Shown in pieces: positions 23,577 through 53,305 of a DNA stretch of 64,000 bases. Positions within the stretch are counted from its first letter, which is position 1, and each line of letters starts with the position of its first letter. A program made the position numbers and the translations under genes. The DNA is from Microthyrium microscopicum (taxonomy: Eukaryota): contig MU004233.1 of assembly GCA_010405405.1 (NCBI GenBank), positions 2,706,539 to 2,770,538 on the forward strand, read 5' to 3'. A model generated the notes under the pieces. It worked only from the letters and a program-made list of their open reading frames with translations. It was not told the origin of the DNA and searched no databases.

Positions 23577-23693
23577 TTTAATCCTGAATTTGTGTCATAA
23601 TCTGGAAGTACGTGCTTCGAAAGGTTACTGATTCTGTGTCAAGTGAGATCGTGGGCTTGTTCATGTAAGTTGCTGATGCCTCCCGTAGTACTA

Positions 23694-23840
23694 CCGTTTT
23701 TACCCTTTCAGTTGGGATAGGTTAGCGCGGTTTTTTAGGCGAGGTTTGTCCGTGAGCGATAGCGAGTCCCTGGCTAAATTCACAGCGCCACCAGCAAGAA
23801 AAAGCGCGCTAACCTATCCCAACTGAAAGGGTAAAAACGG
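23694..23840. mobile_element. 147-bp MITE of Tc1/mariner (pogo-like) type
   Basis: Perfect 36-bp terminal inverted repeats CCGTTTTTACCCTTTCAGTTGGGATAGGTTAGCGCG flanked by TA on both sides (23692-93, 23841-42); no ORF. Confidence 0.9.
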
Positions 23841-24499
23841 TAGGTACCTAATTGAAGCTTTAGATCCATGTCGAGGACCCTGCAGATCTTGCGGAGGGAT
23901 TCTAGTGCTTGGGAATATTTAGAACCGAAAGCCATTCCGGAGGGTCGGCAAACTGGATCCGTAATAATAGGCCCCTAATCCGTCGCTTAATTAGGAAAGG
24001 TTCTATTTAAGAATTAGTAGTAGTTATATAGCGCTAATAGAATCTATTAGCGCTATATAATAGAATTTAGCTCTAATTCTTAATAACGCTTTATTAGAAT
24101 AGTATTTATATAGAGTTTATATAGATATTAGATCTTAGCCTTAAGGTTAATAAAATATATAAAAAACTAATTAATTTTAAGTAGAAAACTAATTAATTTT
24201 AAGTATATTCTTAAAGCTATAAGTAAACTTAAGAATAGCTAAGACTCTTAAGAAAGCTATAGATTATAAAATACGCGCTAATAAAAAGATATAATCTTAT
24301 AGTAGTAATTTAGTAGTAGAAATTATTAGATTTAATATCTTTATATTCTATAACTTATATCTTTATATTCTAAAGCTTAATATCTTCTTTAAAGTTAAAA
24401 TATTTTAATAATCTACTTTAATACCTAGAATCTTAATTAAGAGTATACTTAGCTTATTTAAAGTAAACCTAATTTCCTCTCTTTTCTTTTATATCCTCT

Positions 24500-25560
24500 A
24501 GGGCCTTACTATATAAAATATACTTATATTAGTCTCTAGTTACTAATAAGCTATAGTGCTTATAAAGACCTTTTCTAGTTACTAGTTTCTTAGCTAGGGC
24601 TAAGATAATCTAACTAAATTAGTTAGAATCTATATTTATAATAAAGAATTATATAGTAGTAGTACTAGTAATACTCTAAGTAGTTAAAAAGGTATATTTT
24701 AGAAAAGCGTTATTTAAGATTTTAAGAGTATATCTAGTAGTAAAGTACTTATTAATTAAATAATAAAGAGTATTTTAAAAGATATAGTAATATAGTAGCG
24801 TAAAGAGAAGAATAAATACTATTTAGGAATAATTCTTAGTTCTAATTTATATTAAGAAGCTCTAGATATATAGATTATTATTAAAGACTAGTATAATTTA
24901 AGGGTATTAAGTAGAACTAACGCTTAGAAACTAGTTAATACGTATAGGTAAGAATAAGTTTAATAGCGTAATATTATTATAATAATATTTAGTAAGCGTT
25001 AGAAGCTAATTATTAAAGAAGATAAGACTTTACTATTATCTATAAATAATATATCTACTCTATCTATTTCTAGATTATTATTAATACTACTAGTTTAATC
25101 TTTATTAAAAGAATTCTTTAACTTTAATACTACTAGTTTAGGTCCTCTATTACTATAGTATATATATGCTTAAATATTAATACTTAAGCTTTTAATAAGT
25201 CTTAGCTTAAGAAGAAATAGAAGGGCTTAAAATCCTATAGTAAGATAAGTAAAGTATTAAAAAACGCTATCTTATATTAATAAGGTAGCCTTTATAATAA
25301 AAAAGTATTTTAAAAATACTAATAAGAAAGATAAAGAAGCTTATTATCTTATATAAGTATAGAATCTTATAGATATAGTTATTAATAATAGTAAAGGTAC
25401 GTTAAAATTATAATAAAATAAAGAGATATTATAAAATTTAAGAAGTATTAAAGCGTAGGTTTTTAGATTAAAAGAATAGGCTACTTAGCTTTTAGAGTAA
25501 TATTTAGAAATAGTAAAGAAACTTAGTTATAATTCTATAAATAAGCTTAGATAAATATAA
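24500..25560 (+). pseudogene. Harbinger accessory (Myb/SANT-like) ORF pseudogene
   Basis: De-RIPed frame reads LVRICIHHEELY...FWKSVIQDF...QEALDAWI, resembling fungal Harbinger ORF1; convergent with the transposase; ends approximate. Confidence 0.5.
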
Positions 25561-25569
25561 TTTTAATAT

Positions 25570-26900
25570 TCTTTATAAATTTTAGTAGTTAGTATAGATA
25601 TATTCTATTTATAGCTCTTTATAATATCTTCTAAAAGCTTTAAGAGTTAAATAAAATACTAACCCTAAATCTTTAATATCTTTATTCTTTAATATTTTAT
25701 AGGTACTTAACTATATCTCTTCTTTATTACTTCTTTAATATATAATATTCCTTCTAATCTTTAATAACTTTATAAATAAAACTATTAAATAAACTATTAG
25801 GATTTAGATAATCCTTAATTAATATTAGTAATATTCTAAAATATAAATTTACTAAATTCGTATAGTAATAGGTAAAATAGTTAGTTAATAAGAATGATAT
25901 ACCTAAATAATAGGTAATAGGTATTAAACTAACGTATAGGTTTAGCTTAAAATTAGATATTTCTTTACGTTATAATTCTTTTACCTATATAAAAAATTAC
26001 TTAATAAATATATACTTCTTTACTATAATTTAATTAAATTGCTACTTAGTAATATTTAGTAGGCTATTAAATAAGACTATTATAATATTACTACCTTAGT
26101 ATATAGTATCCTTATATAATTATTATTTTTAGTAGTAAAGAAATAGTTAATAAAGTTTATCTTTAAGATTTAATTCTAAAAGTATTATTTTATTATTAAT
26201 TGTCCTAAGATAACTAACGTTAATAGAGAGAATTATACTATTAGAATAGTATATAGCCTAGCTCTTTATATAGTATCTTTAAGTATAACTATTATAAAAT
26301 GCTTACTATTAATTCTCTTTACCTTCTAGTTAATAGATATTTATTATAGTAGCGTTAATAAAGCCTTAAAAGTAATCTCTACTACTAGTATTCTTTATAA
26401 TATCTATATATTCTTATATTTAATCTAGTATTAAAAGAGAGTAGAATTTTAAAAGCTTATAGTAGTAATGATAAAGATATATTAATATTTAATTAAAGTA
26501 ATCTTTTAATAGTATAGAACTCTTATAAAACTAATAAGAGAGGTTAAAATAAATATATAATTAAGATAGCCTTATTAGTACTAACGCTATTAGGAATTTA
26601 GCTTTATATAGTAGATTATAACGTTTCTTTAAGGAAAGGCTTTAGAAATCTATTAGATAAGCTAATTATTTAATTTCCTTTTTTAAAAACTTATTATATA
26701 CTAATTAGTACTATAGATATTCTTCTTTATAGCTTTAAATAACTATACTAATATTATAATACTATATTACTATTAAAGAAAAGATTAAGATTTTATTCTT
26801 AGTATTTATAGCTAATAGGTAGTTAATATTCTTAATTAATATAATCCTAATTAATATTATTAAGAAATTAGAAGAATTATAACGCTACTATAGCTACTTT
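25570..26900 (-). pseudogene. DDE_Tnp_4 (PIF/Harbinger) transposase pseudogene
   Basis: De-RIPed motifs in one frame: FWGFIDAT (GFIDAT at 26348-26365), ICRP...Q..FY.GH, PDG, ND..ML.ES.L, LYGDTAY (~26101-26119), FN..MA..RV.VE..F (~25990-26040); ends approximate. Confidence 0.8.
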
Positions 26901-27644
26901 AGTAGTAATTTATTATTTAGTATCTATTATGAGTATTTTAGCTATCTTAGGGCTTAAATTTAATAATTTTTAGATAATTTTTAGATAGTTAATAGCTAAG
27001 ATATTATTAAATTAGGGTTTAAAAAGCTATAGAGGTAAAATTTATATGTAATCCTTTATCTCTATTTGATACCCCCTAATAGGACCAATTAATCTACTCC
27101 TTACCTCTTTTGGCTGTTGGATAGCGTTTATTAATTATCAAGTTTTCAGCTGCTAACCCTCCAGATTGTATACCGTACCACTTGATGCCCAATTTATAGC
27201 CCCTGATACCGTTTTCTCACTTGTGGCGCTTGGACTTATCTGGATTAGCGTCCCTGACAAGGTTGCTGCCCATGCAGTGCAAGGATCTGGGCCTGGGGCT
27301 CCCCTGAGCATCCAATAATTCGGGAGTCTTGGGGGCTAAGCCTCAAGTATTCAACTCCTCCTTCATTATCGCGATCTGCTTGAACAACTTCAGTTTGTTG
27401 TCGATTCTTTTCCTTCTGATTTTGCGCTGAATTCTTATCCTTATGCTTTCTAGTAAATATCGCTGATACCTTCCATTCGCGCCCAAGACTCACTCATTCA
27501 CGACGCCCCTGAAGCCTGAATTTGGGGCATGCATACATCCAGACCCTGACTGCGATCACCGGCCTCTAACCGCGAACCTTCTATCGAGTCCCCGTTTAGG
27601 CCTATCCACTCGTTATACCATAAATCCAACTGAAATCGCGAGGG

Positions 27645-30600
27645 ATGAGCGTAAATCGTACTCAGCTCCCCCAGGATCCATTTCAGCGACCGGCGACTGT
27701 TGGATATACTGGTCAAGCCGCTGGGGCAACCTTCCCGCAGCAGCAACCGCAGCAATGGGCGCCACAGCAGCCTACAACAGGTTATAACCCTGCGCAGTAT
27801 CCTGTGATGCCGAGCGTAGCAGGGCAATATCAAGGACATGTACAACCGCAGCAACAACAGCAATCGCAGTATAATCAGCAGCAGCCAGTCTATCAAACCC
27901 CAGGATCCCAAGCGCCGCCAGCTCCTGGAGCATATCAGGCCGAGAATCAAAACCAGGGCTACAATAACAGATGGTCGGTTTCTGGCCAAGTCCCAAATCA
28001 AACCCAACAGTATGATCAAAATGCTCCACAACGGCAGTCGATATACGTTGGAGGTTCTGGCGCAACTCAAAATCCAATAGAGGGACAGAGTCAATATGCG
28101 CAGCAAGTGCCTCCTCCTCTACCACCGAAGGATGGCTATGCCCAGCATGCTATGCAGACACAACAGTACGGTGCCCAGCAGCCTCAGACTGCTGCAGGCT
28201 ACCAACAGCCAAATCAACAATTTGCACCCCCTCAAGGACAATATCAATATGCAGGGCAGCAACCACAGCAATATGGGCAACCGCAGCAAGTACCACCGCC
28301 AACTCAATCTCCTTTACAGAACTTTCATAATACTCCTCCGCCACAAGCTCAATATGGTCATCAACCGCAACCCTCCCAACCTGCAAACCAATATCAATCA
28401 CATGGGCAACAAATAGGACAGGCAGCAGTACCTAACCAGCAGTATCAACAACCAGGTCAACATCCACAGCCAGGATATCAAGGTTATCAACAGCAACAGT
28501 ACCACCAAACCTATCCACCTCAACAACAACCAGGTCAAATATCGAACATACCCTTGCAAAGTTCTCAAAACCCTCAAGTTGAACCAGTATCTCCTATTCT
28601 TGCTGGTCGACAGAATGATCTCCAAAATTCAAGACCGAGCTCACATCATTTACCTTCGCGAACCAATAGCAACATCAGCAAGCCTATTCTAACACCAAAT
28701 TCCAATTCTTCTCCTCCTAGACCTGCCAGGACAACTGATTCTCCAATTTCAGCATTGAAGCCCGTACATGGTCAGGGGTTTGAAACTAAGAAAAAGGTGG
28801 CAGATCCGAATGGCGTCGGCAGCACTGGTGCATCCGCTCTAGGCTATGGAGGACCATCTGATTGGGAGAGCTTCGGACCAGCAGAATACGAGGTTGATGA
28901 TCTAGATTTCTACTCACAACGACAGGAGAAAGCCGAAGAGCAAAAGGACGCTCCAATTGAGTTACCAACCGGGTCACCCGTTACTACTGGGCCGCCCCCT
29001 CCCACATCTGTGATCCATGGAGTTATGGAGGTTGAAGGTAGTACAGTTCCTGTTCAGCAGCATCCAATACATGCGCCTCAGCAATCAGCTTCAGTAGTAG
29101 GAGCTGCCATTGATTCTGGAGTGATCATGTCAGCAGAGCCTAGACAAGCCCATTCCAATCACCCTCCTGGCCCTCCACCTAATCATCCTCAAGTTGCATC
29201 TCCTCCTCCTGCAGAGAACGGCTTGATCATTAGTAATGCTAGTGGATGGGTACCACCTCCAAGCACTGGAGCTCAGTATCAACAACCTCCGTCCCAACCA
29301 CACACCGGGATCATCGTAGGAGCTGCTGGATCCCAAGCAGGATGGCAAGGCGCTCCTATTCAAGGTATGCAGATGTCTAATGTACCTCCTCAGCAGCCTG
29401 CATCAGCACCACCAGGTCAGATGCATGTTGCTCCACCTCACACTGGACTTCTAGCTCAGACCTCTCTAGCCCATTCGATTCCAAATACAGATGAGCACAA
29501 GGCACTTTTAGCAAAACTGGCAGAAACCGAAAGTGAATTGGCTCATTTCAAAGATCGCGAAATGGAGACTCGTCTACTAGGAGAACAAAGTACTGAAGAG
29601 GTACAAAAGCTCAACGGTCGAATTGCAAAGCTGCAAGACGAATGTAATGGTGCACAAAGTGAATATGCCAAGCTTGAGCGCTCAATGGAAGCAATGGAAA
29701 ATGCATCAGTCACCGCTTCAAATGAAAAGGCAGCAATGGAAAAGGAAAGGGGCAATCTGATTGCTAGAATTCAACAACTGGAAAGCGCTTTAGCTACCAT
29801 GAATGCCGAAAAGGAAGGTACTAGAGGAGATCTTACGACCAAACTACAAGCCGCTGAGACTGCACACGCAACGACGAGAACCGATGCTGAAGCAGCGAGT
29901 ACCGGATATCAAGCCAAAATCAAAGAACACGAAACTTCTCTCGCTGAAGCCAAATCCGAGATCGAAGTACTGAAGAAGCAATTGGAAGATGCTAAATCCA
30001 AACCTGCGGACATCGCTCCAGGGCTTGGAGACTGGTATAAAGGATCGCTATCTCGTTTCTCCGAGGTACTGTTTGCTGAAGAAGCAGCTGATAGTGTTCC
30101 GATTAAGATGAAGAAATTCCAAGATTGGGTTAATGCTGAGGCCCAGATGAGAGGTATACAAATGGAGTTTCGGCCCAAATCAGGTTTCAGTTCGGCTCAA
30201 GAACCTCTGGTCTCTCCGGCTTTCACACCTGCGGACACTCCAACTCACAAGCCAAGCCTTGATATGCAAGCTGTTCAGAGAGCTGTATCGAATGCTGATT
30301 CCGATGGCGAACAATATTCACCTGGAGGCAGACCGATAATAGGACGTCCAGTTGCCGGAAGTAGAACAGAGAGTGAGCCTGCATTTCCAGTCCAGCAACC
30401 AATCATTGCACAAATGGCTCCAGCAATTCCAGCGGAAACGAATTCCCCTACCACCGAAAAGCAGCCATTCCGTGCTTACAGAGATCGATCATCGTCAAAT
30501 GCTGTTGTTCATCCGCCACGAAACGATTCTAGATCCAGCTCAATTCCAAACAATGCTGGACAATCGGTGCAAGTTCCTGTTCAACCTCCAGTAGTCCAAG

Positions 30601-32225
30601 CAGCAGTTCCGCCGCCAGTAGCCAAGCCAGCATACCAAAAATTTCAGTATGTTCCGCCAACATCTCCTAACGCGGGAGTTCCTATCGTGGAATCTATCAC
30701 ATCTCCTGTTACTCTTACACGCAATTCGGCTTCCCTGCCATTGCTTCCCACATCCGCAAGATCAGCATCAGTGAGACCGCAGGAAGAGACTTTCTTACCC
30801 AGTGTAGCCGAGGGGAGCAAGGTTCCAGAGACACCCATCGATGAGTCTGCACTACCTGCTCCATTGAAGCCTAAAACGCCCGCTCCATTCACCAAATCAC
30901 CAGCTCAAGAAAAATCTCCAGCGCCCAAAATACTGACTCCTATCCAGGACAAGAAGAAGAAATCAAGCACCTCACCAATAGAAGAACTTCTGGACATTCT
31001 TCCACCGTTTAGAATGCCCACGCCATTACTCCACCATCCACTGATCATTCCAATCCATAAAGCAACATCCCGCTTCTCCCCCTCTGACTTTTCATTTATC
31101 CGCGCCGTGTCCTCCGAATGGGAAGCCCGCGCCGCCTCCAACCGCAAAAGACTGGATTCCGAACGAGCCAAACGCCAAGCGGCTTTTGAAAAAGACCCGG
31201 ACCAACTGTTCCAAGACGGCGAAATCGGCTACGGCGACATCAGCGCTATCGAAGAAGAGCACAAAAACCAAGAACTCAAACATCGCGATCAGGAAGATAC
31301 GGAGGAGTGGGAGAGCTATAATAAAGAAGTCTTTAGCATCGTCTTTGGACGTCTACAAGCGGAAATTGAAGAGCTCCTGCGTATCCGTGCCGACGTCGAT
31401 GCACTAGTTAGTGCTGCTGTTGCTGGTGCGGAGGCGTTGGGCCCGGTGGAGAGTGCGAAGACGGTGCCGTTAGTTGATGCGCTTGACTTGCTGATTCGCG
31501 TCCATGGGTTGCTAGAGGAGCGTGAAAGTGAAGCGAATGCAGCTGTCATTGAGCGCGATCGACGATTCAAGAAGGGCACAACGCGTGGTCTATATCGACG
31601 TGGACAGATCAAGGCGTTGAAGGAACGGGAGGCGCATTTCGAAAAGTTGGAGAGGAGAAATTTGGTGGATCAGCGGGTTAAGAGGACGAAGAACTGTGCT
31701 GAGCTGATGAAGAATGTGGAGACTACTTCGACACGTGGATGCGATAAGAATGAGGCGTGCGCTAGGCAGATACTCGCTCTGCTCAAGCGTATTGCTGAGG
31801 ATTCCTCATCGCCTGATGTGGGTGATGCGCTTGGGAGGTCGGCGGATGTGTTGGTTCAGTTGGCGGATAGTTCGACAAGGCTGATGAGGCTGTTTGGGAA
31901 GGTGGATAGTTTGTTGAATGATGCGGAGTATGGTCAGCAGGTGGCGATTGATAAGTTGAACGATATGGGACCAGAGGTCTTTAAGGATCTGGAAGGGGAT
32001 AAGAAGGAGCACGATGTGCTTCTGAAGCAGGATGCGAACAAGCGGGAGGCGGGTGTACAGACTGCGTTGAAGGAATGGCAGGCAGAGTTGGACAAGACAA
32101 AGAAGAGCTTAGGAAGTGGTGGTGATGCTGGTGCTTCTGCTGACGGGGACGATGAAGAGAGGGAGAAGAAGAAACGTCTTCAGGCGGCATTGGAGAACGC
32201 AAAGAGGAGAAATAGGGATTTGTAG
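27645..32225 (+). CDS. Large hypothetical protein: Q/P/Y-rich low-complexity N-terminus, central coiled coil, helical C-terminus
   Basis: Single 1526-aa ORF; motif YSPGGRP; heptad-rich segments. Confidence 0.85.
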   Translation: MSVNRTQLPQDPFQRPATVGYTGQAAGATFPQQQPQQWAPQQPTTGYNPAQYPVMPSVAGQYQGHVQPQQQQQSQYNQQQPVYQTPGSQAPPAPGAYQAENQNQGYNNRWSVSGQVPNQTQQYDQNAPQRQSIYVGGSGATQNPIEGQSQYAQQVPPPLPPKDGYAQHAMQTQQYGAQQPQTAAGYQQPNQQFAPPQGQYQYAGQQPQQYGQPQQVPPPTQSPLQNFHNTPPPQAQYGHQPQPSQPANQYQSHGQQIGQAAVPNQQYQQPGQHPQPGYQGYQQQQYHQTYPPQQQPGQISNIPLQSSQNPQVEPVSPILAGRQNDLQNSRPSSHHLPSRTNSNISKPILTPNSNSSPPRPARTTDSPISALKPVHGQGFETKKKVADPNGVGSTGASALGYGGPSDWESFGPAEYEVDDLDFYSQRQEKAEEQKDAPIELPTGSPVTTGPPPPTSVIHGVMEVEGSTVPVQQHPIHAPQQSASVVGAAIDSGVIMSAEPRQAHSNHPPGPPPNHPQVASPPPAENGLIISNASGWVPPPSTGAQYQQPPSQPHTGIIVGAAGSQAGWQGAPIQGMQMSNVPPQQPASAPPGQMHVAPPHTGLLAQTSLAHSIPNTDEHKALLAKLAETESELAHFKDREMETRLLGEQSTEEVQKLNGRIAKLQDECNGAQSEYAKLERSMEAMENASVTASNEKAAMEKERGNLIARIQQLESALATMNAEKEGTRGDLTTKLQAAETAHATTRTDAEAASTGYQAKIKEHETSLAEAKSEIEVLKKQLEDAKSKPADIAPGLGDWYKGSLSRFSEVLFAEEAADSVPIKMKKFQDWVNAEAQMRGIQMEFRPKSGFSSAQEPLVSPAFTPADTPTHKPSLDMQAVQRAVSNADSDGEQYSPGGRPIIGRPVAGSRTESEPAFPVQQPIIAQMAPAIPAETNSPTTEKQPFRAYRDRSSSNAVVHPPRNDSRSSSIPNNAGQSVQVPVQPPVVQAAVPPPVAKPAYQKFQYVPPTSPNAGVPIVESITSPVTLTRNSASLPLLPTSARSASVRPQEETFLPSVAEGSKVPETPIDESALPAPLKPKTPAPFTKSPAQEKSPAPKILTPIQDKKKKSSTSPIEELLDILPPFRMPTPLLHHPLIIPIHKATSRFSPSDFSFIRAVSSEWEARAASNRKRLDSERAKRQAAFEKDPDQLFQDGEIGYGDISAIEEEHKNQELKHRDQEDTEEWESYNKEVFSIVFGRLQAEIEELLRIRADVDALVSAAVAGAEALGPVESAKTVPLVDALDLLIRVHGLLEERESEANAAVIERDRRFKKGTTRGLYRRGQIKALKEREAHFEKLERRNLVDQRVKRTKNCAELMKNVETTSTRGCDKNEACARQILALLKRIAEDSSSPDVGDALGRSADVLVQLADSSTRLMRLFGKVDSLLNDAEYGQQVAIDKLNDMGPEVFKDLEGDKKEHDVLLKQDANKREAGVQTALKEWQAELDKTKKSLGSGGDAGASADGDDEEREKKKRLQAALENAKRRNRDL

Positions 32226-32648
32226 AGCGCTTTGGTTTCGGAAATTTTGAATTGTTGCTAATAGGGATGGGATTGTTTGGTGTTTCTGGAGCGAATTTGT
32301 AGCGTTGCATTTGCACTTTAGTTTGATATAAATTGTAATTCAGTCATACATACTACTCTCATTTGTCTATCTTAATCACTATCATGATTATCATGCTACG
32401 ATATATCAATATCATCACAGTTGAATTAAGAGCTTTGAGTTCCAGGAATTAGACACACATATAAACACACTTGCTCTCATCCAATACTCCACTTCTGAGC
32501 AAGAGATAACGAGTTGTCATTAGGACCTGAGGTTTGAAATGTTCTCTGAATCTACTGACAGCAAAAACAGTCCCCAAAATTCCTTCTCGTACATATTGTG
32601 CAGTGAACTCAGCAGGCCCGGAATCATGTTTTTGCAATGATAAGCACC

Positions 32649-32859
32649 CAACGGCATTGCAAAATCAATGGCGTACTCCCATCAACTCTGATGGCTACCA
32701 CCAGCGCTGCTAACCAAAAAGTGCTTGATTTCCGCGTAGCTGATACCCATTCCCAATCCGAACCCCCTTTATGGCAGATAAAGCACTCGACAACAGTTCG
32801 TAGCATCTGGGCGCCATCAGAGTTGATGGGAGTATGCCATTTATTCTACCATGCCGTTG
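32649..32859. mobile_element. 211-bp fold-back MITE with 47-bp TIRs and 7-bp target-site duplication
   Basis: TIRs 32649-32695 and 32813-32859 (CAACGGCAT..., 5 mismatches); AAGCACC direct repeat at 32642-48 and 32860-66; each arm contains CCATCAACTCTGATGG. Confidence 0.85.
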
Positions 32860-32988
32860 AAGCACCAAGAGTGAAGGACGGCGATCCGAAATTGTAGATG
32901 GAGTTCGTGAGACAGGCAACAGGGTTGTAATTCTTGTCTCACCAACACGACTCCAAACTGGGGTTCGCTAAGCATTAGCGCTGAAATC

Positions 32989-34119
32989 TTAACACAACTC
33001 CCCATGAACATTCTTCTTGTGTTTGATCAAGTCACTCAACCGAGCGAACCCTCTATTTCCAACGCGGTCGCAGTCCTCAACACTACAATCGTGCCTCTCC
33101 TTGCCATGCACCGTCCGCATGTGCTTCGAATAGTCCCTGCGTAAAGCGAACCCTTCCTGCCAATGACGCTTAGAGAACGTACAGCATTCATACGAGCAAT
33201 AGCGAGGAAACTCTGTACTAGGGTGTACACGATGCTTCTTTCTCAAATGTTGTCGTAGATGATCCCGGCGACGAAAGGATGCATCCCCACGATACTTTTC
33301 ACATTCTGGACATGGATAGAGTTTTGGAGAGCCATGGACTTCCCGATGTCTCGTCAAAGCGTCTTGTCGAGAAAAGCATGTGTTACAATTGGAACATGCA
33401 AATGGCTTGTGTTTGGTCGTCTTTGCATGTTCTTCCAGATCCAGGGCTCGTGCAAATGCTTCTTTGCATTTTGCACACGAGTGTTTTGCTGCCAGTGGCC
33501 CAGCATGATTGAAAGTAGAAGTCAGTAGATCAGAGGATCCTGGTCCTTCTGAACCTGTGGACGTAGCTTCAGATGGAGCTACTGACACTGCTCTGGTCTC
33601 CATCACAAGGCTGTCCTCGACGGGTGATGCATCAAGTGGCAGGACCTAAATGCATATATTAGCAAAGTTCACAAGTACAAGGATCTTGAGAATGTGCTAA
33701 ATCCACAGCTTGAAGGTTCTACTACGAAATACCGAAGCAGTCTTCGATATACCCATGAAGATATACTACAGTAGCACATTGCTTCCCTTGGAAAATCTTA
33801 CCCATTGAAGTAGCTCGCCATCCCAAGGAGCGTCCAAGGCTGCATCCAGGAAGCTCAGTCCGCGAAGTTCCACATCATCATGCTGATTGGGAAGTGGCTC
33901 CAAAAGATCTAGCGAAGTTGTCTCTACATTCGCTGCCAGCTCTGTCGACAGGACATTGAAGTTATAGTGGCATGTAGACGGTTTTTCAAGCTGCTTTCCT
34001 CCGTGGCTTCTCCAGTTCCAGTCTGCACGACTATTAAAGATCGTTATTGGCCATAGATCCTCGCTGTCCGAGAAGTAGATAGACGAGTATTCTTCGACTC
34101 TCAATTGTTGTGGACTCAT
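32989..34119 (-). CDS. C2H2 zinc-finger protein (about five fingers); start codon uncertain
   Basis: CAKC..F...L..H...H, CSNC..FSRQDALTRH, CPEC...FRRRDHLRQH, CSVEDC...F.RLSDLIKH; intron 33646-33801 (GTAAGA...TAG) joins the upstream ORF in phase 0. Confidence 0.8.
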
Positions 34120-38811: not shown

Positions 38812-39642
38812 CGCTGAGCTGGTGATTTGATGATTTGGGTGAGCAAGGGATAAAAAGGAGATTTAGTTGTGGACAACACATGGAAGGTGTTAGAACATTC
38901 AACACCATCGGACTTAAAAGGCGTGATAGACTTAAATCCGAGTTTACCCCTTTTCTGTGCTGCATTTCATCAACAAAGACCGTGTTCCCGGCTGTCATCT
39001 GGCTTTGACTTTTTCAGGTGAGAGCTTAAATAGCATTTAAGATTTGTGCATCCCAATAGCTGGCCTTTGGGTTCTTACCACACTATCCCATTCTCCAACG
39101 CAGCCTTGTAGTGGCATTTTCGAGTTTTTTATCGACATCCCGTGGCAGTCGAGACTCGGAGTACTCTAAGAAATTACTAGAGCAGGAGAACTCGGATGTA
39201 TACCAACTGACTGTCAGTCTTCCGGAACGCTGATGCTTGGATGTTGTCTGTTCACAATGCTCATGCTCGTGAGCGGAGCTATCTGCGTTATTCCTTCAAG
39301 CTAGATCTGTTCTCCTTAGCTTCAAAGAGGGCTTGAACAAAATCGAATCGCACGCTAAATCGTTTAAAGTTATATTGCTGTACATAATATATAAAATACA
39401 AATGACTGTCCCTGGTCACTGGATTATATGCTCCCAGCGATAACACAGTGACCTCCTGCAAGCAAGTAGCCAACACAATTACACCGGGCTCCAGACTTTC
39501 CGGTGAACCCAATCCGCTGTCCTTTCAATACCTTGTCCATAACGCTCAATGTACGCCGTCTTAACTCCTATCAAACCGCAAGTAATAACCTGAAATCTGT
39601 CAGTATAAGATCATCCTTGGAGCACTTGAAACCGTAAAAACA

Positions 39643-39955
39643 CCATCGCATTCGATGGCGGCCACAGCACTTGATCAGATACGGCTTTCATGGGAGCCAT
39701 CGAATGCGATGGGAGATAAGGTGTTTTTGATTTCGTTGCATGTTGTCAAAAAATGTGATTCAGCACGGCAGAATCTCACCTGGATTTGAACATTGTCAGT
39801 ATAGGTTTACAGTCAAAGATGTCAAATAACCATGAAATACGCCTCAAAACACCAGTGAAGTTGCTGTGGTCATAATATGGTTTCGCCATCGTACTCGGTG
39901 GGAACCATAGCACTCGATGTGAAACGTATGCTATGGTCGCCATCGAGTGTGATGG
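39643..39955. repeat. Two 70-bp four-unit palindrome cassettes (39643-39712, 39886-39955) inside tandem ~190-240-bp degenerate units
   Basis: 16-bp CCATCR-N4-YGATGG-like units at offsets 0, 19, 35, 54 in both cassettes; shared flanks tgtcagtata...gtgttttt...tgtgatt. Confidence 0.85.
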
Positions 39956-40053
39956 AGAAATCGTGTTTTTGGATCCATTGGATATCGTCAAAGAATGTGT
40001 GATTTCACACGGGGAATTCTTACCTCTTAACGCCAATATGTGGTAGGCGATAT

Positions 40054-41837
40054 CTACTGCCAATTCTCGGCTCCAGACAACTCCTCATTCTGATCATCAT
40101 GTTCGCTGGCTGCGGGAGTTTCCTTATTTTTCCGCATAGGCAGTTTCACACCTTGCGCGTTCAAGGCTCGGGTGAGCTCGGTACTTTTCATCATTCCAGG
40201 AAACTTCTTAGCCGTGTAGACTTCGAAAACAGCACTAAAGCAGCTGACCGGGACGGGATTTTTGTCGCGCTGTTGGCCATCCCAAAATTTCTGTGGCCCT
40301 AGTCCAGCTATGTTTATCAAGGTGAATTTTAGACGAAATTTTCCGTCCTTGCGCACCGAAATATCTGCAAAGGGGAACAAGATAAGGCCGCCAAAAAGTT
40401 CGGCAGTCACATGCCGTTGTCCAATGATATTGTCAGTGTACTCCCCGACGTTTGGCTCTAGCATGTTGACAATTTGTGTCCTCGCATATCCGGATTGGCC
40501 GGGCATCGCATTCATGACCATTCGCTGCCCTGCGTCGCGGAACGGCGCAGGGGGAAACGAGGCTGTGCTGCTCGCACCGATACTCCTGGTGGAAGTACTA
40601 CCTGAAAATAAGTCAGTTTAAGATGGAGGAAGAGTGGAACTTAAGCCGCCACACGCTGAAGCCATGACATGATCTTCTCAGGATGAAATCCCATTGCAAT
40701 TTATGGGACCCATCCAGTACGATGGGAGCCATCAAATACTATAGAAAATCAAGCGCTATGGAAGCCATATGCCGCGATGGGAACAACCAATGGCACTAGC
40801 TATTGAGGGAAAGTGGGTAAAAGTGATGTTACAAGAGGAAATCTCACAGGAAGTTCTGCCACAGCAGAGAAGACTGGCAGGCTGCATGCTAGATGCGTCG
40901 ATTATATCGACCGCCACGATGAATTGCGAGATATCAATCTCGCTGACAGGTACTACCTCCCACGGTCCGAAAGCATTAGACCACACACAGAGTGCGACAA
41001 TAGGAGCGTGGGAGATAGGCCTCCTGTCTTTGTCGCCGAAGCCGCACATGCGGGCCCGGACGGGTTCTTGCAAAACGCTCAAGGTATACGCATGATCTCC
41101 TAGAGTACTGGTGACACTGCTGGGGACACTGCTTGGCACAGTGGGCACTGGAAACTATTAGCCTTATCACCAGATCGCACTTTATGACTCCCATCAAGTG
41201 TGATGGGAACCATCAAATGTCTTGAAACAGCATTGCTCGATGTGATAAATGATAGAATTAGCACAAGATGAGTTTTTTTTTACATATGCGAGAGCATCAT
41301 GTGGCAGCCATCGAATGCGATGGCAGCCATCAGATGTGCTCGCAATGTCTCATCAACTTCAGATAACAGAGAGAAACGGAGAGATCAGGGTACCGTGAAG
41401 CCCCGCCGAACGCGCCAAATGATATTTTTAGTGCAAAATAGCTCACAAAATGGGATGAGGGGAACTTGGGAGCGTTTGATATTTCTACCAAGGAAGCAGA
41501 TGGTCACCATCGAATGCGATGGGAGCCAGGTAGTGTGTTGTGATCATCGGGGTTTGCTGCGAAACATTTTCTTTAAGACGAGAGCGGACTTACTGCTACT
41601 GGGGTTGAAGCCATTAAGATGGCTCAAGTCGTCAGGAAAGTTGAAGTGGTTGACACCAGAGCCATCGTCAAACATGATATTGTTGTCATTGTTGTAATTT
41701 GGAAGTAGGTCTTGGGAATTCGGATCGAGCGTGACAGTCAGGTCTTGTGTAGTAATTGAAAGACTTGGATCTTCAGAGTAGGGATTGCTAGGCACATTGT
41801 TCACGTCGAGTTCGTTCCAGAGAGGTGCATAAGCCAT
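40054..41837 (-). CDS. Velvet-domain protein, divergent VelB-like paralog (3 exons)
   Basis: Exons 41837-41594, 41147-40848, 40601-40054 splice in frame (introns GTAAGT...CAG 446 nt, GTGAGA...CAG 246 nt); velvet motifs YTLSVLQEPVRARMCGFGDKDRRPI, SIGASSTASFPP, DISVRKDGKFRLKF, FSAVFEVYTAKKFPGMMKSTEL...QGVKLPMRK. Confidence 0.9.
40691..40780. repeat. Palindrome array in velvet intron 2 (5 units)
   Basis: Units at 40691, 40710, 40729, 40746, 40765 (e.g. CCATCCAGTACGATGG), mostly 3-bp spacers. Confidence 0.8.
41172..41541. repeat. Three palindrome arrays in velvet intron 1
   Basis: Units at 41172/41191/41210, 41289/41308/41327, 41488/41507/41526; exact CCATCGAATGCGATGG at 41308 and 41507. Confidence 0.85.
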
Positions 41838-44215
41838 GCTGGAGTGGTTGACAGTGCTCAAGGTAAAGAAATATGCACACTTTGCGCAAACTAGAGGATT
41901 AATGGTAATGCAGAAAATATGTTGGGAGAAAGTTACAGTTACTGGACATTGGCTACTTTTATACCAAATGCTCTGATAGCGGCACTTGAACTTCTCCGTA
42001 GCTGGAGAGAAGTATGGGACCGCTGATCTGTCATAACTATGGCGCGCTCTGAATGACTTGATGGCATCTACCGTTAAATCTTGACTTTTGTGGAGAAAAT
42101 AGACGATAGTAGCGGTCGCAGGTATGCTGTAGATCAGGCAGAAGAACTAAATTGGTACAGTCTCCTTGAAGAGCCCTGTTTCATGACTATTTAGGATCAT
42201 ATTGGAGTTCAACCAGAAAATTTCTGTGAAGAAGGTAAGCAACGGCATAGGCAAGCCTGTTGGTGAACCATGGTTGTAAACAACGCGGACGTTAGCATTG
42301 CGGTCTAGGACATAATTTGGTTCGAGCATTTGACATCTATGAACTGCATTCAAACACAAGGAGCCAGTGTTGTGATACTGGGTAGAACATGTAGGATACC
42401 GCGATGAATGGCGGTGGATGAATGCTGTCGGAAGAGAATGGAGCACGGCAGCTGTATTTCCCTAGAGCTTACTGCCGCCATGACTTCCATGTAGATTGGC
42501 AGGAATCACCTATCTCGTTCGGAAATCGGTATGATAGAGAACCGCGGTACGGATCTTTAAACTAAGATTTAGCGTTGGTTGACCATCATTTAACACTGCC
42601 ATTGTTTGACCCGACGAATCGCCACCCCCTGTCAGCCAAAAGTCTTTGAGCAGTTTTGATTATACATTAGCGATCCTGCATTTCTGTACTAGTAGTATAG
42701 GCAGAAGAAACCTCTGCGAAATAGAACAAAACCTTGTTGTTTTGTGGGCGCCAGTTCACAAAGTTTCTTAGTGCGCAGAGAGCGAGGGATAGTACCAAAT
42801 TTTATTCGGATATACGAACTAATGCTACAGTGGTGGCCCATGAGCAACTTCTATCGAGCCCGAGGTATCGAGTAATGGTTAAGAACGCAAAGATCCTGGC
42901 AGCTGAATTGCTAGTGTCTGATATGGGAATTAGGTAGCAGGGTAAAAGAGCTTGCATGAGTCAATCTAGACTGGCCTGGGAACCGTGGGATGTGAAGTAT
43001 TGTGTTCATTCTAGATGTGCTGAAAGCCGAAAATTGGCAGCGTTATCGACTGTTGATGTCGGAGAAAGTGATGTTAGATAAAATCGTGAGATTTGGGTAC
43101 GTACCTGACTGTAAAGCTAACGTGAGTATGGGGTATCATGGAATTTTCCATTGCTCCACAGGTACGGATTCTAGTCTACAGCTAGAGATTCAGCTCTAGA
43201 GAATGTGGTTGAATGTCATCACTTTTCGATATATGTCTCGGACTTCGTTGAAAGCCTAGCGAATCAGCTTCCAAAGTCAATTCTATCGTGCTTGATCCAG
43301 CGTTATACTGGTAGAGGTAAAATCATAGCGCCTACTGGGTAAGGCTCCTTTGCGGCTAGCGATAACAGGTGCCGTACTGTAATCACACGTCGACCTTGAA
43401 GTCTCGCGCTCGCATCTTCGGTTACTAGTTGTAGAGTCATGAATGATCAGGGCCCGTCATAGTATCAATATGGAGACCGACCATAGCCGCGCTACTACTG
43501 CCACGTCTTGATATACTGGGAGACATCCTGTTGCCTGCTAATCCAGTTCCAAGAAAGTAGAGGAGAGAGGGAGCACGTTCATCCGAGCAGAGCAACTCAC
43601 GAAGTTTGGTTGTCGTTGCACGCGATGTGGGTTAAAGTGCCACCACCTGCCTCGCCTTTCCTGATGGCTTGAATAGAGCACAAATACATGAATCAAAACA
43701 TGCATTACAGACAAGACTAGCATTCCCAACGGTGCCTTGCTCTTTACAATACGCAAACGGCGCTTTCGATTATTGAAAAATAGTTTCTGGAATTGATCTG
43801 GGCGATTGGTGGTGGGCATTGAGAATCAGAGGAAAGGAAGGTCGAACTCGAGAATTTGCAACAACCCCACTAATAGAGAGACGGTGTGTTTGAGAGACAT
43901 GAAGAACCATTGCATAACTTGTTATTATTTTATTTTGATGGATGAAGAGAAGGGTTGGTGCGATCAGAAATTTGGACGTTGAGATCTGATGAGAGGTAGT
44001 TGGAGTGGCAGCCTTGACCAATCAGTCGTTGCACTCCAGACCGAGGTTTCGCCATCCTAGAAATCCCGCCTAGCCAATCAGCTTTAGCCTAAGCGTCAAC
44101 GACGAACTTCATTCCAAAGTCGATTGATTTCTCCATCTCGAACTCTTCAACCGCTCAATTACCCGCAATTCCGCCTTTGCTCCTCCCGCAAGCTTGTGAA
44201 CAAGTCGGGCTCACA

Positions 44216-50740: not shown

Positions 50741-53023
50741 ATGTCCAGCGAAGGTTTGTTGTTGCCTTATATACTGGACGCTTGAAAGCTAACTTCTGCC
50801 CACCTGGCAGATTGGCCATTGTGCATGACTTGCCAGTCGATCGTCCTTCCTGACTGGTATGACACTGGCTGGTCGTTTGAGTACAGTTCTGTCAGCGACA
50901 TTTTTGTAGCTGCCAAAAATCGCTGTGCATTCTGCTACTATATTAAGCTCTGGATTGAACGTCTTGATTACAGATTACCTTTGGTCGAGTCCGTGCGATT
51001 GAGGTTGATCAAATATGATGACGGACAGAATACCATAGGGATTGGATGTATGCCATCAAACTTCCCTCCCAAGGTCGACGTCATCTTTCAAGGACTCGAC
51101 TTCTACGTTGAAAGATTAAAAGGTTCTATTGCATGCCCGAAGTGTGCAATATGTGTCGCTAATCACTCAGAACCAGACAGCAAACATACTACTGGCGTAT
51201 TCGCTAGGCGAGACACTATCAAAGATATGCAATCAATGGAAACATTCAATTTAGCCCGAAAATGGTTGAATAAATGTCTAAACAATCATAGTTCGGATTG
51301 TAAGGTAGCAACCGTACCTGAATTGCCTCCCCGAGTACTTGATGTATCTCTTGCGCAAAGAACTGGACAGGTCCAATTGTATATTACCTCTGAGGGTGCT
51401 GTCAAAGCTGCGAATTACTTAGCACTTTCCTACTGTTGGGGCCAGGTGCATTCCATAACTACTACAAAGTCGACCATAGAAGATCGTAGGAAAGGAATAT
51501 CAATGTCTGAGTTGCCAAGGTATCATTTTGATGAGGTCCATGGAAAAGTCATATGCTGATTTGCACTGTGCAGAACCATACGAGACGCTGTCAAAGTTAC
51601 GATTGAGCTTGGCTATCAATATCTATGGGTTGATCGACTTTGCATTCTACAGGGAACAGACTCCGAGTCTCTCGACGATTGGAAGTACCAGTGCGGTTTG
51701 ATGGAGCAGATCTATGGGCAAGCCACTGTTACTATTTCTGCTTCTGCAGTGGAGGACCCAGAAGGTGGACTATTTCTTCCCCGGCGATTTGCCCTGAAAG
51801 TGGTAAGTTAAATCTGCATATCGAGTCATTCACTGATCTCTCGACTCACTTGGTGGTAGCAAAGTAGCTGCTGGCTCTCATTGCAGTCGATGGGCACCTG
51901 ATACTTCACATGAGCGCTAGACTACTTTGTAATGTGAGATTGCACCATCACTTCGGCGTCTCTAGACTTCCTGTTTATATAACATACTAACCAGTTTCAG
52001 GCAATACGAGAGACCGGCGGAGCCTGGAGAGAAGAACCGGTCTTGCTGAGCTGCGCTCGACCGTCCAAGAAGTCCTACGATGAAGAACCCATAAACACTC
52101 GAGCTTGGACGATGCAAGAGTATCTCTTATCACCTAGAGTACTAGTCTACTCTACCCGTACTGTAACGTGGGTTTGTAGTAGCGGGTTCTTCAAGGAGCC
52201 ACTGGAAGGTAACGAAGGCGTTCATTGGAGCCGTGAGTACATCCAAAGACTTTCAGCTATCAACAATGGGTATGACTGGCACACGTTGGTCACGAACTAT
52301 TGTACACGGAACTTGTCACGAAACAACGATAAGCTGACAGCCTTTGCTGGAATCGCACGTCGGTTCCATAAACAAAGAGCCAAAGCTTCTGATCGCTACC
52401 TTGCCGGTATATGGAAAGCGCAAATCGCTCGGGACTTGCTTTGGATCCGTGTCGCCCCTGCACATATCACCACAGGGGCCACATTTTACAATCCTTCCCA
52501 GCATAGCACTAGCATCTGCTCAACGGAGGAATACCGAGCTCCCAGTTGGTCATGGGCGTCCATAGACGGAGGTATCTCATATCCTCCATTTACACAGGCA
52601 GCATCAAGAAGGTCCGCCACGCGAATCCTAAGAGCAGAGACGCATCTAGAAAACCTTGACGAATATGGAAGCGTTACTGGCGGCGAAATCGAAGCACGTG
52701 GGTCACTGCTACCTGGATGGTTGAACTTCGAAGATTCCCAAACGGGACCTTGGGTCATGGTTGATGTCAAATCCGGCTCAGAAGCTGTGACACATAAGAA
52801 AAAGCTAGGATATGCTTTCCTGGATGACAAAGACGGCATTCAGCGAGCTAGTGGAAACATATTTTGCCTGAATCTGGTGATTTCTGGGAAATTTGTTTAT
52901 GGTTTGATTTTGATCTCGGTCCCTGAGAAACCTGGGTATTTCACCAGAGTTGGAGTTGTACGGATACAACGAGCAGAACTTGCATCGAAAGAGGCGCCAG
53001 ACGAAACTATTGTCATATTATAA
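50741..53023 (+). CDS. HET-domain (heterokaryon incompatibility) protein
   Basis: LPPRVLDV, YLALSYCWG, LPRTIRDAV...YLWVDRLCILQ, M.QIY.QA.VTISA, INTRAWTMQE, YLAGIW, APSWSWAS; several introns. Confidence 0.9.
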
Positions 53024-53068: not shown

Positions 53069-53305
53069 AATATGCCATATAATCGATGGGCAAAAAGCTT
53101 CCCGTGGCCCCATCAGTTTCAATGGCTCCCGCGACCACTACTAGACAACAAGTGCTATAATGTTCCATTGCACCCGACAAACTGTGCCGGCTGAAAGCTT
53201 TCTATGGTGCTAAGCGCACTCGATACTAGTGTGTATCGTGTAAGTGCCATCGAAGTCGACGGGTCACGCTAGTCATTTTGTCCATCGATTATTCTGGTAC
53301 CATTT
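53069..53305. mobile_element. Degenerate ~235-bp fold-back element related to the 32.6-kb MITE motif family
   Basis: ataatcgatgggcaaaa (53079-95) pairs with ttttgtccatcgattat (53276-92); inner arms carry CCATCAGTTTCAATGG (53110) and CCATCGAAGTCGACGG (53247). Confidence 0.55.

Follow-up and report, generated by a model that had tools for sequence, protein, structure and literature searches.

What are dense arrays of a short palindrome doing in the introns of a fungal regulatory gene? The question is raised by a 64,000-nt stretch of the Microthyrium microscopicum genome (assembly GCA_010405405.1, contig MU004233.1, positions 2,706,539 to 2,770,538 of the forward strand), which we call the window and number from its first letter. 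On its minus strand, at 41837-40054, lies a VelB-like gene of the velvet family, whose two introns and 3' flank hold clusters of a 16-nt near-palindrome of the form CCATCR-N4-YGATGG. An initial annotation of the window took these clusters either for a self-contained operator array of a dimeric velvet regulator, or for the binding sites of a mobile-element family that had captured the gene or become associated with it. The reading that we favor, at a probability of roughly 60%, is that the arrays are the hairpin cores of a family of introner-like, internally symmetrical repeat introns that has multiplied locally.

The mechanism that we envisage is as follows. A non-coding repeat family of M. 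microscopicum would sit in transcribed non-coding DNA and be removed from the transcript by the spliceosome. Each unit would carry its own GTRAG donor, ACTGAC-type branch site, and YAG acceptor, with 16-nt near-palindromes at 19-nt spacing between them, and these near-palindromes would pair with their inverted copies so that the intron folds as a long hairpin with its ends brought together. Four such units would be present at the velvet gene, namely the two long coding introns and a tandem pair (units A and B) that together form a 434-nt intron of the 3' untranslated region (UTR). The copies would have arisen mostly locally, by tandem duplication in the case of A and B and perhaps by re-insertion in the same transcript; the coding introns may be older copies or may themselves have been re-inserted in this way. 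The copies would since have decayed, largely at CpG sites.

Palindrome clusters at the velvet locus

CCATCR-N4-YGATGG is found 8 times in the window against an expectation of 0.03, and none of 100 shuffled sequences contained as many as 8 matches. Six of the 8 belong to the velvet locus (39643, 39697, 39940, 41191, 41308, and 41507). The exact 16-mer recurs at 39697, 41308, and 41507 with its reverse complement at 39643, all as the initial annotation had placed them, and a literature text search with the exact 16-mers returned no match; among the papers searched, none mentions introners together with Microthyrium. When the 12 specified positions of the motif are scored within 39590-41593, 6 units match at 12/12 positions, 8 at 11 or more, 14 at 10 or more, and 17 at 9 or more. 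The earlier figure of about 22 was therefore generous. Relative to the rest of the window, the locus is enriched 93-fold in perfect units and 21-fold in units with at least 10 of 12 matches.

The units fall into six clusters (39643-39712, 39886-39955, 40691-40780, 41191-41225, 41308-41342, and 41488-41522). All of the clusters are located in the introns and 3' flank of the velvet gene, which bears out the six arrays described from the first inspection. The exons are avoided by the clusters as claimed, but not by every single unit: one of those matching at 10 or more positions sits at 40094, inside exon 3. The proposed 19-bp period is also recovered, with 7 of 19 neighbor-to-neighbor gaps measuring exactly 19 bp among hits of at least 9/12 positions between 39500 and 41900. 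Degenerate units often differ from the perfect unit by a change of CG to CA or of CG to TG, for instance at 39940, 41191, and 41327. Such changes would account for the R/Y ambiguity in the motif, and they resemble the C-to-T decay of repeated DNA.

Four intron-shaped units

What had been taken for 3' flank is a tandem pair of intron-shaped units, 244 and 190 nt long. Both have a GTRAG donor, a branch site reading ACTGAC, and CAG as the acceptor. Unit A (39780-40023, minus strand, 244 nt), in the 3' UTR, reads GTAAGA...TATACTGAC...CCAG around a foldback core at 39874-39967, and its donor lies 30 nt past the TAG stop of the velvet gene. Unit B (39590-39779, minus strand, 190 nt) reads GTGAGA...TATACTGAC...TTTCAG and adjoins unit A at CAG|GTGAG. 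The two are homologous from end to end, branch site included: 148 of the 190 positions of B are identical to A, and their 5' arms resemble each other with a z score of 6.4.

The two coding introns of the gene have a similar layout. Intron 1 (41148-41593, minus strand, 446 nt) begins with a GTAAGT donor, ends in GCTAATAG...CCAG, and contains the clusters at 41488-41522, 41308-41342, and 41191-41225. Intron 2 (40602-40847, minus strand, 246 nt) begins with a GTGAGA donor, contains the cluster at 40691-40780, and ends in AAACTGAC...TTTTCAG, sharing the AACTGAC...TTTTCAG type of 3' end. The offset of the first palindrome unit from the donor G is nearly the same throughout, at 68 nt in B, 68 nt in intron 2, 69 nt in A, and 72 nt in intron 1.

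Several traits expected of introner-like elements (ILEs) can be examined in these four units. All four (4/4) start with GTRAG and end with YAG, and ACTGAC lies 12-19 nt before the AG in A, B, and intron 2, while intron 1 has GCTAAT. At 190, 244, 246, and 446 nt they are longer than four reference introns of the window, which measure 47-49 nt, a small sample (n = 4). One reference intron, of 48 nt, interrupts the rhodanese gene described below, where it appears as a 16-residue gap against the annotated protein with 327/327 other aligned residues identical. The other three (47, 49, and 49 nt) come from a crude intron scan that made 14 proposals, 11 of which (81-294 nt) were judged unreliable. 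The initial annotation had put most introns here at about 50-60 nt.

The palindrome units sit in inverted groups, and long RNA hairpins are predicted from them. Compared with shuffled sequences, stable folding is predicted for unit B (z of -3.83), unit A (-3.52), and intron 1 (-3.23). Inverted arms of 22-52 nt were also recorded. Unit B is self-symmetrical over its whole length, with a z score of 6.4 against shuffles when aligned with its own reverse complement, and its two ends pair in the predicted fold. Unit A is symmetrical in its core only (z of 1.1 for the whole unit). A target-site duplication of constant length was not found at the ends of the units: the flanking repeats comprise 4 letters (AGGT) at A+B and 2 letters at intron 2, while intron 1 has no such repeat. 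In searches for known RNA families, nothing in Rfam scored above threshold and no tRNA was detected.

A contig that skips units A and B

A 500-nt contig from a sequencing run that we label X6 covers 39377-39587 and 40022-40310 with 0 differences and skips 434 nt in between. The joint can be shifted by up to 4 letters, and one of the 5 resulting placements removes exactly 39590-40023 (minus strand, 434 nt), that is, units A and B together with GT..AG ends on the minus strand. The boundaries of A and B had been fixed from the sequence alone, ahead of any read data. In this one X6 contig, the downstream 3' UTR segment (39377-39589, minus strand) is joined to exon 3, and the same joint is absent from the contigs of X3, a DNA run that is flagged as a possible source of the window.

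We expect that this joint marks a spliced 3' UTR intron of 434 nt, provided that X6 is an RNA run. The depth of the joined contig is 3.9, and six other listed repeat-bearing X6 contigs range from 15 to 428, whereas the corresponding range for the eight listed X3 contigs is 859-1170. Such uneven depth fits RNA slightly better than it fits DNA from a strain lacking the units. If the joint is a splice junction, then what the initial annotation treated as plain 3' flanking DNA is probably intronic. The CAG|GTGAG boundary between the units would allow A and B to be removed in one step or in two.

An exon junction closer than about 50-55 nt to the stop codon does not mark a transcript for nonsense-mediated decay. 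The 3' UTR intron begins only 30 nt past the velvet stop and by this rule would not trigger such decay.

Related copies elsewhere in the window and genome

On the 2.9-kb stretch around the locus, 47 contigs of run X3 could be aligned, 38 of which fit only partly. Wherever depth exceeds the single-copy value of 1036.4, the bin in question contains a palindrome cluster or is next to one. The window has G at position 39919, in the core of unit A, where 4 of these contigs have C and 7 have T, and therefore at least 11 other contigs overlap the unit A core. In seven listed X3 pieces, 64-76 nt are matched with 8-13 differences (approximately 80-88% identity). The loose ends of the X3 contigs match one another, and parts of them show weak agreement with the A and B arms.

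Two relatives were found within the window by a profile built from A and B. The better one (32546-32942, minus strand; nhmmer E = 0.0079) is a nearly perfect 397-nt hairpin with a fold z of -4.0. Its 52-nt arms are 87% complementary, and it is symmetrical end to end, scoring a z of 5.6 against its own reverse complement. Two CCATCA-N4-TGATGG units lie within it in inverted orientation, and it runs from a GTGAGA start to a CAG end, with no good branch site. It begins 46 nt past the TAA stop of an open reading frame (ORF) for a C2H2 zinc-finger protein (32989-33645), in an interval where two genes converge, and it is probably related to the velvet-locus units, from which it has diverged. The second (53079-53292) is a foldback with a weak profile match (E = 0.16), 32-nt arms that are 78% complementary, and degenerate 19-nt phased units. 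Its splice signals are not clear, and its position is about 55 nt past the stop of the ORF at 51983-53023. With cores on at least 11 other contigs and two relatives in the window, the arrays are therefore not specific to the velvet gene. A self-BLAST of the window with the units found nothing outside the locus, the profile search being the more sensitive of the two.

Searches of metagenomes did not extend the family. A scan for a donor-like 9-mer together with the palindrome gave 0 loci; the 9-mer itself was set aside as evidence of a donor, having been judged element-arm sequence homologous to the letters just before 39643. A scan for two phased units gave at least 120 loci with a single motif each, and two BLAST matches to the units, of 23 and 27 nt. 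We treated these loci as chance matches and not as relatives of the family.

Alternative explanations

Several observations weigh against a family of repeat introns. A published introner survey lists GCA_010405405.1 with 0 introner families in two rows of its supplement (PMC12130899). Similarity between the 5' arms of introns 1 and 2 and the A and B arms is weak (z of 0.9-3.3), and these two may be ordinary introns into which repeats have inserted and not whole units. Intron 2 is not significantly structured (fold z of -1.08, with 27/200 shuffles folding as well or better). The X6 joint covers A+B only, no contig covers the junctions of introns 1 and 2, and the identification of X6 as RNA is a guess. 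The other genomic copies seen share only the 64-76 nt cores, and the poor splice signals of both window relatives indicate that the family is not strictly intronic. Finally, six clusters fall within 2 kb while the other 62 kb contain two diverged relatives, a local excess far beyond what random insertion predicts. Local duplication would explain this excess, but it is demonstrated for A and B only, and the excess remains poorly explained.

Many of the same observations would be expected of a foldback DNA repeat of the type of miniature inverted-repeat transposable elements, with arms made of 19-bp sub-repeats, which can settle in any non-coding DNA and here had inserted several times in ordinary introns and the 3' UTR, the splice sites of A and B being fortuitous or acquired later. 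The element would then not be one that generates introns. This alternative is possible, though we think it unlikely. It would readily account for family members that lack convincing splice signals (53079-53292 and, in part, 32546-32942), for genomic copies that share mainly the core, for the weak similarity of the intron 1 and 2 arms to A and B, and for the 0 introner families of the published screen (PMC12130899); the AGGT flanking A+B could be a target-site duplication, and repeats lying inside regular introns, not counted as ILEs, are noted for some fungi in the ILE literature (PMC3609843). However, A and B are homologous from donor to acceptor, branch site included, and a donor offset of 68-72 nt in 4/4 units is unexpected from independent insertions. 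The flanking repeats (4, 2, and 0 letters) amount to no consistent target-site duplication, and AG|GT is also the usual context of an exon-intron boundary. It is much harder to see the palindromes as binding sites for a dimeric transcription factor, the velvet protein or another, in an autoregulatory or titrating operator array possibly spread by a mobile element. The 16-nt unit has dyad symmetry, velvet proteins are described as binding DNA as dimers (PMC3876986), the arginines corresponding to VelB R71, R80, and R81 are conserved in the protein encoded here, and the local density of perfect units (93-fold) is extreme. Against this, the cores on at least 11 other contigs are not velvet-specific, and the motif published for VosA, CTGGCCaaGGC (PMC3876986), is absent from 39301-42300 and unlike the unit. 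The inverted hairpin groups explain both symmetry and spacing without a protein, and many units have decayed at CpG sites, unlike conserved operators. We therefore consider an operator array highly improbable, and nothing found here links the velvet protein to the arrays; a new kind of self-contained operator system is not supported. A more elaborate version, in which a VelB-like protein with an altered ISHAP loop recognizes a 16-nt palindrome that a mobile hairpin element has dispersed genome-wide and concentrated in the introns and 3' UTR of the protein's own gene, yielding a new regulon with an autoregulatory or titrating cluster, strikes us as equally far-fetched. Very little likelihood attaches, too, to the idea that the hairpins are functional RNAs, such as small-RNA precursors or structures controlling splicing or stability, and are kept for that role. 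The predicted hairpins are stable (z of -3.2 to -3.8 at the locus and -4.0 at 32546-32942), and the segment 39873-39968 has a hairpin-shaped, sub-threshold match to a plant microRNA precursor model in Rfam. That match scores 24.3 bits, far short of the gathering score of 88, and reflects hairpin shape only; the copies have diverged and decayed, and intron 2 is not significantly structured.

The part of the initial annotation that associated the locus with a mobile or repeat family holds up in view of the cores on at least 11 contigs and the two window relatives, but there is no sign of gene capture. Capture of the velvet gene by a larger mobile element was considered and rejected: GC content shows no shift across 36-46 kb (0.43-0.52), and no long flanking repeats were found. 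A further proposal concerns intron gain: the four units would show an intron in the act of multiplying inside the transcript that carries it, through reverse splicing or local re-insertion, although the genome was scored as free of introners. We regard this proposal as doubtful, if less bold and likelier than the new regulon.

Comparison with known systems

Introner-like elements of Dothideomycetes were reportedly described by van der Burgt et al. in 2012. Later accounts characterize them as multi-copy introns that exceed regular introns in length, fold stably, degenerate quickly, and in some cases occur as duplicates in a single gene (PMC3609843, PMC4457414). The velvet-locus units share with the ILEs of these reports (Collemare et al. 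2013, PMC3609843; Collemare et al. 2015, PMC4457414) a dothideomycete host, canonical splice signals, and a long, structured, multi-copy, and degenerating character, and two or more copies in one gene are also among the published observations (PMC3609843). In contrast, reported ILEs number tens to hundreds of near-identical introns spread over unrelated genes, whereas here the other copies are cores of 64-76 nt with 80-88% identity and four units are found at one gene, two of them in tandem in the 3' UTR. Membership of the units among the ILEs is not established, given the negative published screen.

A second counterpart is found in the Hypoxylaceae, where proliferating introns with terminal inverted repeats have been described (PMC8469720). 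In these sister (stw)introns (Fekete et al. 2021, PMC8469720), the inverted repeats at the termini would allow the entire intron to form double-stranded RNA, comparable to unit B and to the element at 32546-32942, and integration is seamless in both cases, with no consistent flanking duplication. They differ in that they are donor-disrupted nested introns and their cropped derivatives, occur in Sordariomycetes, and carry a TTTCTAGAAA palindrome (PMC8469720). The units here instead have arms of 19-nt phased near-palindromes, and the tandem pair abuts at CAG|GT and is not nested.

Foldback elements have arms composed of tandem sub-repeats, and so do the units at the velvet locus. Transposon-derived introners, including those of foldback and miniature inverted-repeat type, are likewise reported as short, non-coding, multi-copy, and spliceable, with inverted arms (Gozashti et al. 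2025, PMC12130899). The family described here differs in that no transposase partner, consistent target-site duplication, or near-identical copies were found. The velvet locus would work in the manner of these three systems, and dothideomycete ILEs and the symmetrical sister introns of the Hypoxylaceae provide counterparts for an arrangement that the initial annotation did not recognize from any described system.

The host gene

The host gene, judged from its reading frame and domain matches, is an intact but strongly divergent VelB-like velvet gene. It is read from the minus strand (41837-40054) in three exons, 41837-41594, 41147-40848, and 40601-40054, separated by introns of 446 and 246 nt that are both of GT..AG type. 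The coding sequence of 1092 nt comprises 363 codons and a TAG stop, with 0 internal stops. Exon 1 (41594-41837, minus strand) starts with the ATG at 41837-41835 and contributes 81 codons and 1 base ahead of the GTAAGT donor, an open frame with no Pfam match. Exon 2 (40848-41147, minus strand) encodes the N-terminal half of the velvet domain, including RARMCGFGDKDRRPISHAP, covers positions 1-67 of the Pfam profile, and aligns with residues 47-130 of A. nidulans VelB (4n6r_B). Exon 3 (40054-40601, minus strand) encodes a short linker rich in S, T, A, and P followed by the C-terminal velvet half, which covers profile positions 81-236 and aligns with 4n6r_B residues 233-365, and ends with the TAG at 40056-40054. 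Scores against the Pfam Velvet family (PF11754, a profile of 237 positions) are 64.9 bits (E = 1.4e-17) for exon 2 and 105.2 bits (E = 6.9e-30) for exon 3, with a cut-off of 25; together with the frame check, these matches confirm the three-exon velvet gene of the initial annotation.

Among solved structures, A. nidulans VelB (4n6r_B) is the best match for both halves (E = 9.3e-15 and 4.2e-13), ahead of VosA (2e-7 and 0.0053) and VeA (3.5e-5 and 8.5e-5). Several features of the protein are those of VelB. According to a published description, VelB is the only velvet regulator with a disordered insert interrupting the velvet domain (PMC12614781), and the domain here is interrupted at the same place by a linker of about 59 residues, 29 of 58 of which are S, T, A, P, or G. 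The alignment with 4n6r_B extends to exon 2 residue 93 (VelB 130) for the N-terminal half and resumes at exon 3 residue 53 (VelB 233) for the C-terminal half. The linker is shorter than the approximately 102 residues in VelB. The RARMCGFGDKDRRP motif is kept, with VelB residues R71, R80, and R81 through P82 conserved; these three are reported as essential arginines in A. nidulans VelB (PMC13389560).

Other features depart from VelB. The canonical VelB DNA-binding region RARMCGFGDKDRRPITPPPC is not reproduced, in that T84, P85, P86, and C88 read S, H, A, and I and the DNA-binding loop has ISHAPI where VelB has ITPPPC. ITPPP is present in 13/13 canonical VelB representatives examined. Identity of the protein to these representatives is 37-40% for its C-terminal half and 38-49% for its N-terminal half; the median among the representatives themselves is 59-60%. 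The C-terminal FPGMMKSTELTR is closer to the VosA-type FPGMAEST than to the VelB-type FPGVIEST. Among 1.84 billion cluster representatives, only an 84-residue fragment of the protein itself exceeds 50% identity, followed by relatives at 41-47%, several of which carry the source names VelB or velvet complex subunit B. The earlier description of the protein as VelB-like but divergent, with ISHAP in place of ITPPP, is in line with all of this.

Is this gene an additional velvet paralog? The label list of a published velvet tree includes three M. microscopicum proteins (PMC10845976, supplement 1). The label of one of them, protein 425332, stands beside a Verruconis protein and near the VelB anchors AN0363 and NCU02775, as the labels are ordered in the text and not in the tree itself (PMC10845976). 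A full-length protein matching the gene at 40054-41837 was not found in the protein collections, which hold only an identical 84-residue fragment, although they do contain the annotated protein of the neighboring rhodanese gene. Among longer proteins, only one weak match contained exon 3. Because the label list has a protein near the VelB anchors and the collections lack a full-length match despite containing the neighbor, the gene is probably an unannotated extra paralog. This makes the claim of an extra copy in the initial annotation likely but not proven. A query with a canonical VelB (P0022, Xylariaceae) returned no Microthyrium protein among the best 120 of 1293 matches, which says nothing either way. 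The gene seems to be absent from the public annotation or mis-modelled there, perhaps as a result of its long introns.

A 29,895-nt contig of a further run, X5 (depth 140), matches the gene over only 35 nt (41030-41064), the part encoding the CGFGDKDRRP stretch, with 4 differences, and presumably carries the velB of another organism. Low-depth contigs of the same run are identical to the window at 40066-40614 and 41201-41439. Stretches of the locus left uncovered by X5, X6, and a further run, X7, were given no weight as evidence.

Neighboring genes and other features of the window

The velvet gene lies between a rhodanese/UPF0176 gene and a cytochrome c1 gene, in agreement with the TSTD2- and CYT1-type neighbors named earlier. 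The next-best relatives of the rhodanese protein are 57-67% identical to it, and the lineage is thinly sampled. Farther along the window, an unrelated foldback at 23691-23843 has 45-nt arms with 98% complementarity, separated by 63 nt. It is located just before a 3-kb AT-rich block (24000-27000) in which GC content drops to 0.17-0.22, against 0.46 for the window, and which is full of AT-rich inverted repeats. This block looks like a relic of mutated repeat DNA. On the plus strand, 27624-32225 is occupied by an uninterrupted ORF of 1533 residues with no Pfam family at E <= 0.001.

Implications

If the reading as repeat introns is correct, the velvet locus would offer a compact natural case of the origin and multiplication of long repeat introns that form hairpins, with four related units in one gene. 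The tandem pair joined at CAG|GT could leave the transcript in two steps. The example would come from an order of Dothideomycetes, the Microthyriales, reported as introner-free by a large survey (PMC12130899). Screens based on similarity may miss older or low-copy introner families, as well as genes that were never annotated. Apart from its introns, an unannotated and divergent VelB-like gene bears on the number of velvet paralogs that are counted in fungi.

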